From an uncultured cyanobacterium (GTDB taxonomy: Bacteria; Cyanobacteriota; Cyanobacteriia; Cyanobacteriales; Cyanobacteriaceae): a DNA stretch of 64,000 bases. Positions 44,427-46,101 of this stretch are shown here, one piece after another. How positions within the stretch are numbered: position 1 is the stretch's first letter; each line of letters begins with the position of its first letter. The notes under the pieces are model-generated. The model had not been told where the DNA came from, made no database searches, and saw only the letters and a program-made list of their open reading frames with translations. A program made the position numbers and the translations under genes. Where the stretch lies: positions 128,001-192,000 of the forward strand of contig CAVVOP010000008.1 in the NCBI GenBank assembly GCA_963749915.1, given 5' to 3'.

Positions 44427-45173
44427 TTGATATTTTTACCATCTAAAACCATAAATACTACGCACCCTCTCTTTATCTACTTACCTGGCATGGACGGCAG
44501 TGGCAAACTTCTTAAAAGTCAAAGTCAGATTTGGCAGAATTTTGATGTGCGTTGCGTGGCGATTCCCCCTCATCATGGCATTGAATGGCTAGAATTAACC
44601 CAACAACTAGTTACTTTAATCCAGCAACAACTAAAAGTTAACGGTGGTCGGGAGATTTATTTATGTGGAGAGTCTTTTGGCGCTTGTTTAGCCATAAAAC
44701 TAATGGAAAAAATGCCCGATATATTTACAAAGGTAATTTTAATTAATTCTGCCTCGGCGTTTCGTGAACGTCCATGGTTACATTGGGGAACTTATGTGAC
44801 ACGAATGATGCCAGATTTTATTTATCGAGGTTCAACCCTATTATTATTGCCGTTTTTAGCGAAATTAGAAGCCTTGAATTTAAGAGAACGTCAACGACTA
44901 CTCAGGGTTATGGCATCATTACCTCCCACTACCGTATCATGGCGCATCAACTTATTAGAAAAATTTTTTCTCGATCAAAACAAGTTAAATAAATATAAAA
45001 AAGATGTTTTAATTGTCGCTTCTGCCGAAGATCAATTATTACCATCCGTGGAAGAAGCTAAGAGATTAAAGAGTCTTTTTACTCAGTCTCAAATAAGTAT
45101 TCTTCCTTATAGTGGTCATTGTTGTTTACTAGAAAAAGAGGTAGATTTACTCAAAATAATCAAAAAATATTAA
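44427..45173 (+). CDS. Alpha/beta hydrolase
   Basis: LPGMDG, GESFG, SGHCCLLE. Confidence 0.88.
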   Translation: MIFLPSKTINTTHPLFIYLPGMDGSGKLLKSQSQIWQNFDVRCVAIPPHHGIEWLELTQQLVTLIQQQLKVNGGREIYLCGESFGACLAIKLMEKMPDIFTKVILINSASAFRERPWLHWGTYVTRMMPDFIYRGSTLLLLPFLAKLEALNLRERQRLLRVMASLPPTTVSWRINLLEKFFLDQNKLNKYKKDVLIVASAEDQLLPSVEEAKRLKSLFTQSQISILPYSGHCCLLEKEVDLLKIIKKY

Positions 45174-45287
45174 AAAGTATTTTTTTGATTAAAGTCGTTC
45201 AAAGCCTTTAAAATATAGACGTTTGGCCAAATTTATTTTTAGTTGATTTATGATTTTTATCATTTATTTTGGAGAAAGAAGGGGCTT

Positions 45288-45340
45288 AATGTAAAGTTTT
45301 GTAAAAATATCTTTCTTTTTCAAAAAAACATTGTTATCTT
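45288..45340 (+). promoter_or_regulatory. HLR1 (RpaB) site plus extended -10 promoter
   Basis: Reverse complement of 45288-45305 is TTTACAAA-AC-TTTACATT (HLR1 consensus); TGnTATCTT at 45332-45340. Confidence 0.65.
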
Positions 45341-45346
45341 ATATAT

Positions 45347-45813
45347 ATGGAAGCAAGTTAAAGGCTTCTTTCGATAGACCAAACAGCTGGTATAAACCGT
45401 AATGTAAAAAGTGAGGTGAAAAGGCTGAAAAAGATACGCAATATCTGTCTTTCGATGACCGAAACAGCAGTTAGTTTTCTGTTTCATATTTCCTAAACTT
45501 GTAAAAAGGGAGCAATGGGACTGGGCTTAATCAGAAAGATTATTTGACGTTCAGTACAACTCTATAAAGTCTCGGTTTAGGTAAGGAAAAAAAAGTGAAT
45601 TAATGGAGGTTAAATAAGCTGTTTACGGTGACTTTAGGTTACGTTTTCGTGAATATCAATGACAGTAGCCAGTGCCGAGTCTTGAATTTCCTAAGATATA
45701 GCGAAGCAGGGAGTAAGGGAACTGAGTTCAAAGGGTTTAGTGCAACTCCGAGCATTCTCAACTAGGGTAGGAAATAATAAAGCGGGTCAACGTCGGGCTA
45801 CTGTTATTGTTAT
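45347..45813 (+). ncRNA. Candidate large structured ncRNA with two copies of one motif (possibly PmgR1/Ncr0700-related; unverified)
   Basis: ORF-free 680-bp gap; promoter; helices 45381-45388/45617-45624 and 45653-45670/45796-45813; repeated GGGAG..ACUG..(C/U)AGU.CAACUC motif. Confidence 0.7.
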
Positions 45814-45856
45814 GATCAGATATAATTTGTACGTTCTCTTCAATATTTACAAATAA

Positions 45857-46069
45857 ATGATCAAAGTAACAGGTATAGTAAAACATCAAAATATCGGTGT
45901 TGGTACATGGACACTAATCGATGATGCTGGAGAAACTTATGAGTTATATAATCCTCCTGAAAGTATCCGTCAAGATGGTTTAAAAGTCTCAGTAGAGGGT
46001 AGGATCAGAGAAGATATAATGACGATCGCCATGGTGGGGAAAATACTGGAAATTATGTCTTTGTGTTAA
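45857..46069 (+). CDS. Small conserved hypothetical protein
   Basis: GVGTWTL...GETYEL...DGLKVSVEG.IREDIMTIAMVG.ILE. Confidence 0.75.
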   Translation: MIKVTGIVKHQNIGVGTWTLIDDAGETYELYNPPESIRQDGLKVSVEGRIREDIMTIAMVGKILEIMSLC

Positions 46070-46101
46070 TTGTTAATTGTTAGTTGTTAATTGGTAATAG
46101 T

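Follow-up and report, generated by a model that had tools for sequence, protein, structure and literature searches.

The stretch analysed here, a window of 64 kb from a contig of an uncultured cyanobacterium, contains a gap between an alpha/beta-hydrolase gene (44427-45173) and a conserved open reading frame (ORF) of 70 amino acids (45857-46069). The initial annotation had described the segment 45288-45813 as free of ORFs; the ORF list shows only short ones there, of 38-55 amino acids, and no long ORF across the gap. We read this segment as the gene for the local orthologue of PmgR1 (Ncr0700), a small RNA (sRNA) of Synechocystis sp. PCC 6803, in an enlarged, lineage-specific form. Together with an account in which RpaB controls its promoter, a long-range helix terminates it and some read-through supplies the downstream ORF, we give this reading a probability of roughly 0.8. 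The features at the locus, as they are used below, are the following.

45288-45305, minus strand: HLR1 motif (two octamer repeats), a predicted RpaB site; perfect match to the consensus, conserved in the 15-sequence alignment A1 described below.
45332-45340, plus strand: extended -10 element TGT-TATCTT, read from the sequence.
45347-45815, plus strand: the whole RNA, about 470 nucleotides (nt), from the A of AUGGAAGC to the U-rich tail after closing helix 2; both ends are inferred and unmapped.
45349-45369, plus strand: P1, the 5' hairpin GGAAGC/GCUUCU, with compensatory changes according to RNAalifold and the same hairpin in 40 distant homologues.
45372-45454, plus strand: P2, formed by CGAUAGAC (45372-45379) and GUCUUUCG (45447-45454), from RNAalifold on A1 and the fold of the window RNA.
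45458-45468, plus strand: 5' strand of closing helix 1, ACCGAAACAGC, which RNAalifold pairs with GCUGUUUACGGU at 45618-45629.
45489-45589, plus strand: module 1, from the covariance model R2 and a match of the family profile at 45437-45589.
45605-45629, plus strand: second GGAGGU motif (45605-45610), followed by GCUGUUUACGGU, the 3' strand of closing helix 1 (45618-45629); in the family-profile alignment it falls on the GAGGU...GCUGUUUA core, which puts the start of the duplicated unit here.
45653-45670, plus strand: 5' strand of closing helix 2, the putative terminator stem; 96.5% paired, the homologous helix covarying in 40 distant homologues.
45686-45775, plus strand: module 2, the source module of R2, within a match of the family profile at 45606-45822.
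45796-45815, plus strand: 3' strand of closing helix 2 and U-rich tail (terminator-like), from pairing counts.
45857-46069, plus strand: conserved 70-amino-acid ORF (hypothetical protein), kept 3' of the RNA in relatives; candidate read-through gene.

The segment is conserved as one block in the taxonomic family to which the window belongs. When 45280-45860 was compared by BLASTN with 41 related genomes, 19 of them other genomes of that family, 14 of the 19 contained a full-length homologue of about 530 nt with 67-88% identity. Similarity begins at exactly 45288 in every matched relative, extends to about 45815 and resumes in the downstream ORF. One further genome of the family (G009) gave a match of 25 nt only, and outside the family there were promoter-sized fragments only. 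With covariance models and inspection, the two-module form described below was also recognized in G009, G014 (of a GC-richer genus) and G011, bringing the total to 17 of 19; the two genomes of genus g2, G007 and G012 (84% and 67% complete), gave scattered weak matches only (E 0.15-0.5). The window and its full-length relatives were aligned (A1, 15 sequences). Their RNAalifold consensus has 77 pairs, 17 of them with compensatory change.

At the 5' end, P2 encloses AAACAGC (45381-45387), an unpaired GAGGUGA (45413-45419) and a small hairpin (45433-45436/45442-45445). A 26-nt direct repeat with 77% identity (UCUUUCGAU.GAC..AAACAGC) lies at 45367-45392 and 45448-45473, one copy covering the 5' strand of P2 and AAACAGC, the other the 3' strand of P2 and the 5' strand of closing helix 1. 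The repeat may have been left by the duplication, or it may simply result from P2 being nearly palindromic.

A three-helix module occurs twice in the RNA. Its helices are UUUCCU/AGGAAA on the outside, GGAG/CUCY, and a variable stem opening with ACUG/CAGU; a conserved, asymmetric internal loop has about 7 nt on its 5' side and RCAW on its 3' side. Module 1 is made up of UUUCCU (45489-45494) and AGGAAA (45584-45589), GGGAG (45508-45512) and CUCU (45560-45563), and ACUGGGC (45520-45526) and GUUCAGU (45549-45555). The corresponding parts of module 2 are AUUUCCUA (45686-45693) and UAGGAAAU (45768-45775), GGGAG (45709-45713) and CUCC (45746-45749), and a stem at 45720-45729/45733-45741. Within the window, the similarity of the two modules is modest (62 of 108 aligned columns identical; local score 31, against 21.3 +/- 3.3 in 300 shuffles, the largest of which reached 35), so that the case rests on the comparison with relatives. 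A covariance model trained only on module 2 of the 15 genomes (R2) recovers all 15 copies of module 1 at the expected place (E 8.7e-7 to 0.028, for 68 kb), with one doubtful extra match (E 0.4). Searched against the window's own genome of 4.7 Mb, the same model finds two places only, namely the two modules (E 3.6e-20 and 0.019). In an alignment of 33 rows fitted to the model, the doubtful match among them, the three helices are paired in 94.1% of cells, compared to 85.1% in shuffles and 42-57% with slid partners, and 11 of 16 pairs show compensatory change. Both the positions of the two modules and the statement that their pairing is kept despite sequence change, as made in the initial annotation, are thus borne out. 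When a structure was written by hand on a plain MAFFT alignment, 91.3% of cells were paired although one strand was out of register, and RNAalifold on a mixed MAFFT alignment of 30 modules found the GGAG/CUCY helix only, because the outer strand was one column out of register; this alignment is superseded by the model-based one. For module 1, RNAalifold also offered a pairing of UGUUU (45481-45485) with GAGCA, which we set aside since GGAG/CUCU covaries in both modules.

Each module is enclosed by a long-range helix. Closing helix 2 (45653-45670/45796-45813), which the initial annotation had predicted from the sequence, comprises 17 pairs, is paired in 96.5% of cells in the 15 genomes and has 4 pairs (18 cells) changed on both sides. 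It encloses module 2 in a stretch of 125 nt and is followed by a U-rich tail, which is interrupted in the window (UGUUAUUGUUAU) and cleaner in relatives. Closing helix 2 and its tail would terminate most transcripts and thereby yield an abundant free RNA. For module 1, the initial annotation had chosen a helix between AAACAGCU (45381-45388) and AGCUGUUU (45617-45624), which did not hold up: it is paired in 84.2% of cells, shows no compensatory change, has 6 of 8 pairs that depart only by broken cells, and would cross P2. The 3' strand finds a better partner in ACCGAAACAGC. The resulting helix, ACCGAAACAGC/GCUGUUUACGGU, is paired in 96.6% of cells but almost invariant in the 15 genomes, so that its pairing count is neutral. 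It is kept with other letters in G011 (AACC..AAACGG/CUGUUU..GGUU) and in G009 and G014 (CCGCGGA/UCUGCGG). Part of its 5' strand, GAAACAG (45461-45467), can alternatively pair locally with CUGUUUC (45479-45485), and from this local hairpin a conformational switch appears possible.

What kind of RNA is this? Searched with the Rfam covariance models, as had been suggested, the whole window gives no match at the gathering score, and 45150-45900 gives matches at chance level only (E 0.5-8); six homologous loci, among them one from a Synechocystis metagenome-assembled genome (MAG), give none at E <= 0.01. The supplement of PMC6596454 prints the 251-nt Synechocystis Ncr0700 (PmgR1), and an inspection by eye shows that it shares with the window RNA the 5' AUGGA- hairpin, CAGAU, AAACAGC, GAGGU, AUCUGUCU and one GGGAG...CUCC module.

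The relationship was followed through other cyanobacteria with models and patterns. A covariance model of the 5' domain of the window's family (R1) matches 5 of 145 genomes of the order that lie outside this family; the five belong to three other families. All five loci have an HLR1-like site, a -10 box, P1 and the CAGAU, AACAGC, AGAGGU, GCUGUU and UCUGUC motifs, and in all five these are followed by exactly one module, a closing helix and a U-run. A sequence pattern derived from three of these loci and run on the GTDB species-genome collection matches at least 120 stretches of species genomes. Eighty loci were examined. The titles of 76 carry genus names that we take to be cyanobacterial (such as Nostoc, Anabaena, Acaryochloris, Crocosphaera, Leptolyngbya and the Synechocystis MAG); three others read "uncultured bacterium" and one "Chloroflexi". 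The last, L111, is a contig of a MAG labelled Chloroflexi that carries the PmgR1 pattern, and a binning error is possible. R1 gives 28 matches on the 80 loci; with R2, 46 of them show a module immediately 3' of the 5' domain (50 matches). The modules that R2 finds there are paired in 93.7% of cells, and 12 of 16 pairs are compensatory. Elsewhere in cyanobacteria, the RNA is about 250 nt long: the 5' domain is joined to one module within a terminator helix, and a U-run follows, which is the same design that closes module 2. A whole-unit alignment of 40 sequences of such distant homologues has a consensus of 46 pairs, 25 with compensatory change; it covers P1, GGCAGAU/AUCUGUC, ACAGC/GCUGU around an unpaired AGAGGU, a 12-pair closing helix with U-run, and the module. 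The P2 region of the window is homologous to the GGCAGAU/AUCUGUC and ACAGC/GCUGU helices and AGAGGU loop of these RNAs. The alignment includes locus L070 of the Synechocystis MAG, which by eye has long identical strings and the same layout as the published 251-nt sequence and which, judged on this likeness, plainly reads as its orthologue.

The window itself was then compared with a profile hidden Markov model (nhmmer) of 87 single-module units from 79 loci, L070 again included. In the stronger of two matches (45606-45822, E 1.2e-16), GGAGGUUAAAUAAGCUGUUUA falls on the family's GAGGU-GCUGUUUA core, and the match then takes in the closing helix, module 2 and the putative terminator; the other (45437-45589, E 5.3e-13) spans UCUGUCU to the end of module 1. 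There was no match to the isolated 5' piece (45300-45445), a result that is uninformative as the piece is shorter than the model's window. The suspicion, voiced in the initial annotation, that the 5' part may be related to PmgR1/Ncr0700 was correct, and it extends further than suspected: the whole RNA including the module, and not its 5' part alone, belongs to the PmgR1 family, the homology being established transitively through R1, R2, the 87-unit profile and the by-eye link between L070 and the published sequence. The initial annotation had not recognized the repeated fold as a described family, and this has to be corrected. Because the single-module form occurs across cyanobacteria, the fold belongs to an sRNA already in print, even though Rfam 15 lacks a model of it.

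The two profile matches indicate that the window RNA is composed of one 5' domain followed by two copies of the GAGGU-to-module segment. The copies recur at a spacing of about 195 nt (GAGGU at 45413 and 45606; the module cores lie 201 nt apart), and a tandem duplication of this size within the RNA would account for the two-unit form. In the first copy, GCUGUU has decayed to GGCUGAA, and the second copy's GCUGUUUACGG now closes module 1; this closing 3' strand would derive from the GCUGUUU motif of the second unit. None of the 80 loci elsewhere has two modules behind one 5' domain. Seven of them (L056, L042, L062, L067, L082, L091 and L097) instead carry two to three whole units head-to-tail, 352-500 nt apart, in Trichormus, Aliinostoc, Nostoc, Lusitaniella and some MAGs. 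Some genomes have two separate PmgR1-like loci, for example Laspinema sp. D2d (L072 and L110).

Compared to PmgR1 of Synechocystis sp. PCC 6803, the window RNA shares the HLR1 at -59 to -42 on the same strand, the 5' AUGGA- with P1, CAGAU/AUCUG, AACAGC/GCUGUU, the unpaired AGAGGU, the GGGAG...CUCC module within a long-range helix with U-run, and the lack of protein-coding potential. It differs in its length (about 470 nt, against about 250 nt in Synechocystis), in the GAGGU-plus-module unit that is present twice per transcript, in the chimeric helix that newly closes module 1, in the decayed GCUGUU of the first unit, and in the conserved 70-amino-acid ORF on its 3' side. The PmgR1 family, its regulation by darkness and low light, and its HLR1 are already known. 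For the two-module form, the placement of the module within the terminator helix, the wide distribution of the family and the tandem arrays, we found no description in the accessible literature; the original PmgR1 paper or the supplement of PMC12873609 may show part of this.

The promoter fits the family assignment. The HLR1 at 45288-45305 is the sole match to the consensus without mismatch in the window, where 0.46 matches with at most one mismatch are expected by chance. Counted from the inferred, unmapped start at 45347, which was set by comparing the window by eye with the published Ncr0700 5' end (AUGGAG..., supplement of PMC6596454), the motif lies at -59 to -42, with its centre at -50.5, and TATCTT lies at -12 to -7, with TGT just before. 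TTGTTAT.TTAT is nearly invariant in A1, and a simple sigma-70 promoter scan does not list this extended -10 element. Table S3 of PMC6525291 gives the HLR1 of TU1715 (ncr0700, ncr0710, ssr2227) the same coordinates, -59 to -42 on the minus strand, and the class "act". In that paper, a site centred near -51 is the mark of a promoter that low light activates and high light represses. The window promoter, with its HLR1 centre about 50 nt upstream of the inferred start, falls in this class and agrees with TU1715 in coordinates and class, so that the activating position that the initial annotation had assigned to the site is confirmed by print. The promoter type, HLR1-controlled, is accordingly not new, as it has been published for the Synechocystis orthologue. 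PmgR1 peaks in darkness (PMC6596454, PMC5386190), and its level falls (log2 -4.1) upon transfer to high light, opposite to that of PsrR1 (PMC12850537). By analogy with these published data, RpaB would activate transcription of the window RNA in low light and darkness, and the transcript would collapse in high light.

Parts of the stretch occur in 16 RNA-labelled sequencing runs from 12 studies. Four runs from four studies were compared, and each holds one contig of 404-463 nt with 0-2 mismatches (45357-45796, 45359-45762, 45360-45766 and 45363-45766). None extends into either flanking gene, and in run X1 the contig passes directly into adapter sequence at 45796. The 70-amino-acid ORF and the promoter are not covered, which is no evidence of absence. 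We take the contigs as a hint of a discrete assembled transcript, not as proof. Other contigs, with depths of 65-493, match 45442-45497 only and continue as related but different sequence; they probably stem from the PmgR1 genes of other species, whose RNAs would greatly outnumber the type of the window there (depth 11). In three of the four runs compared, there are A-to-G differences at 45529 and 45533, in the variable hairpin of module 1, for which strain variation is a likely explanation.

These data also bear on the possibility that the segment is not an RNA gene at all but is conserved at the DNA level, as an extended regulatory region of the ORF that follows, or consists of several small coding ORFs, since ORFs of 38-55 amino acids can after all be drawn in it. 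However, compensatory changes occur in many helices, hairpins differ in length by numbers that are not multiples of three (module 2 measures 92-110 nt), near-identical contigs are found in RNA libraries of four studies, and the segment is homologous to an experimentally studied sRNA. We consider such an explanation extremely improbable.

Several points weigh against our reading and should be set beside its support. The published Ncr0700 sequence was compared by eye only. R1 reaches only 5 of 145 genomes outside the family, which shows that single models are insensitive here, and L070 lies below the reach of both R1 and R2 at E <= 0.1, so that its link consists of the pattern, the by-eye layout and its fit in alignment A7. 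The units of the profile were chosen by the pattern, which fixes three 5' motif columns and leaves the module and the closing helix free. The minimum free energy of the window RNA does not differ significantly from that of shuffled sequences (z -1.1), so that the evidence for structure is covariation rather than energy. The support for closing helix 1 comes from three distant genomes, by eye and by minimum free energy folding, and in G009 the folding chose another pairing. A simple terminator scan restricted to loops of 3-8 nt found no match, and the U-tail of the window is interrupted; to such a scan, the 125-nt "loop" of closing helix 2 is invisible. Finally, the contigs show neither ends nor strand nor level, and RNA libraries may contain DNA.

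The 70-amino-acid ORF, which the initial annotation had not mentioned, is present 3' of the RNA in all 15 aligned genomes, with 53-75% amino-acid identity, and also in G009 and G014. A weak match to DUF5818 stays below the cut-off, and the records of Geminocystis and Acaryochloris annotate it as "hypothetical protein" only. In relatives, a Shine-Dalgarno sequence and an AUG often follow 10-25 nt past the U-tail. Such closeness behind the putative terminator makes read-through into the ORF plausible on sequence grounds, and read-through would supply the ORF, starting about 10-45 nt further on, as part of a chimeric sRNA-mRNA unit. In the genus of the window only, a perfect TATAAT lies at 45822-45827, between the end of the RNA and the ORF, so that the ORF may have its own promoter there; in other genera there is no room for one. 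In one relative (L004, from G001), an insertion of about 75 nt separates the terminator tail from the ORF. Just past the ORF's stop, at 46064-46098, there is a TTAATTG-type, heptamer-like tandem repeat that is matched by very short RNA-library contigs with depths of up to about 219; similar simple repeats flank the PmgR1-like RNA of locus L071.

This arrangement raises the question of whether the structured region serves the ORF chiefly as a leader acting in cis, whose two tandem sensor domains, for a ligand or a protein, decide between termination and read-through. The constant presence of the ORF in the family, the little promoter room before its AUG in several genomes, and the alternative pairing of GAAACAG, with CUGUUUC nearby or GCUGUUU far off, would suit a leader, and chimeric sRNA-mRNA units have been described for Ncr0700 in Synechocystis 6803 (PMC5386190). 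Outside the family, however, the association breaks down. None of 85 loci (L027-L111), most of which reach only about 400 nt past the RNA, has a relative of the ORF. In three of these (L027, L029 and L031, of one genus), a second, classical hairpin terminator follows the single-module RNA, and the gene after it reads from its translation as primase (dnaG), so that the neighbourhood of the RNA differs between lineages. PmgR1 accumulates as a separate sRNA in Synechocystis (PMC6596454), the metatranscriptome contigs end before the ORF (a weak hint), and in the window's genus TATAAT could serve the ORF as its own promoter. A leader would moreover be compatible with an additional function in trans. 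A role mainly in cis is therefore rather improbable in our judgement, though it deserves more credit than the non-RNA alternative.

Two known arrangements resemble the locus. Actuatons are sRNAs with a strong regulated promoter directly upstream of a gene that seemingly has no room for a promoter of its own, and Kopf et al. (2015, PMC5386190) used Ncr0700 itself to illustrate the idea. There, the partner of Ncr0700 in Synechocystis 6803 is a transposase gene, acquired by rearrangement, whereas read-through in the window is a proposal from proximity. Tandem riboswitches, such as those for glycine and the cyanobacterial tandem glutamine aptamers, likewise have two similar domains in series upstream of a gene, with a U-run after the last helix. 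Against a riboswitch speak the lack of an Rfam riboswitch match at the gathering score in the window and the nature of the single-domain homologues, which are stand-alone sRNA genes with other downstream genes; a single regulated gene family is not apparent either, as the ORF is adjacent in none of the 85 loci outside the window's family.

PmgR1 is reportedly required for photomixotrophic growth and involved in the control of glycogen, to judge from the title of a 2016 paper by de Porcellinis and colleagues (Plant Cell Physiol 57:2091). In Synechocystis, few dark-phase transcripts are more abundant (PMC5386190). It sediments mid-gradient, much like RNase P RNA (PMC12475003); it is processed by RNase E, and its direct targets and mechanism were not known as of 2021 (both PMC8682795).

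In our proposal, the module with its asymmetric internal loop and the exposed GAGGU together form a unit that binds a partner, either a protein or a ribonucleoprotein; PmgR1 would act by stoichiometric binding, and the duplication would double its valency. Several considerations favour a partner: conservation spans the whole fold including the nucleotides of the internal loop, the exposed motifs are purine-rich and unsuited to pairing with ribosome-binding sites, the RNA is very abundant, and its whole unit has been multiplied in two ways. The mid-gradient sedimentation and the lack of a known direct RNA target in 2021 lean the same way. The hints in the literature are indirect, and we regard binding of this kind as a serious possibility that falls somewhat short of an even chance.

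The competing idea is a classical trans-acting sRNA, in which unpaired seeds pair with carbon or glycogen mRNAs while the modules serve for stability and termination only. This is the mode of most characterized cyanobacterial sRNAs, with PsrR1, IsaR1 and NsiR4 as named examples (PMC6596454). GAGGU and A-rich stretches are indeed unpaired in the 40-sequence consensus, and processing by RNase E (PMC8682795) might release an active seed. Yet no direct target had been found by 2021, according to the same paper. The conserved unpaired motifs are purine-rich and Shine-Dalgarno-like, from which it follows that they could hardly pair with the ribosome-binding sites of mRNAs. Conservation and covariation extend over the whole 250-nt unit, with conserved internal-loop nucleotides, and the duplication took the whole unit rather than a seed. 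We consider seed pairing somewhat less likely than the binding of a partner, but as the main alternative to it, ahead of a role mainly in cis.

Among possible partners of the binding unit, CsrA can be discarded. PF02599 is absent from the window's genome, which is 100% complete, while the controls (E. coli, B. subtilis and T. maritima) matched, and a rough count shows no enrichment of GGA motifs in the RNA; a CsrA sponge is thus rejected. The comparison with CsrB/RsmZ and 6S RNA is nevertheless instructive. They too are abundant, condition-specific and highly structured RNAs with repeated binding units, a property predicted for the window RNA, and PmgR1 of Synechocystis has likewise been linked to glycogen (PMC6166021). 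The differences are that the window's genome has no CsrA gene and that neither a 6S nor a CsrB model matches. A more specific, and unlikelier, version of the proposal is that GAGGU and the three-helix module bind an as yet unidentified partner, for which a protein or, by way of its anti-Shine-Dalgarno end, the 30S subunit would come into question. PmgR1 would then reprogram carbon storage in darkness by titration, with a capacity tuned by copy number; we put it forward tentatively. If it were true, the tuning would take place through internal duplication in the window's family and through gene arrays in Nostocales and other lineages, and PmgR1 would do in cyanobacteria, with a new partner, what CsrB or 6S RNA does elsewhere.

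Independently of the partner, the analysis provides a defined object for work on the mechanism of PmgR1, namely a covarying module inside a terminator helix, coupled with an exposed GAGGU. A family that has no Rfam model and that was missed by a recent structure screen of 202 genomes (PMC12873609) would be better annotated with a curated model. Well over a hundred species of cyanobacteria have kept the unit, which has been amplified independently within a transcript and as arrays, and the natural two-module variant of the window's family is a ready-made valency experiment.

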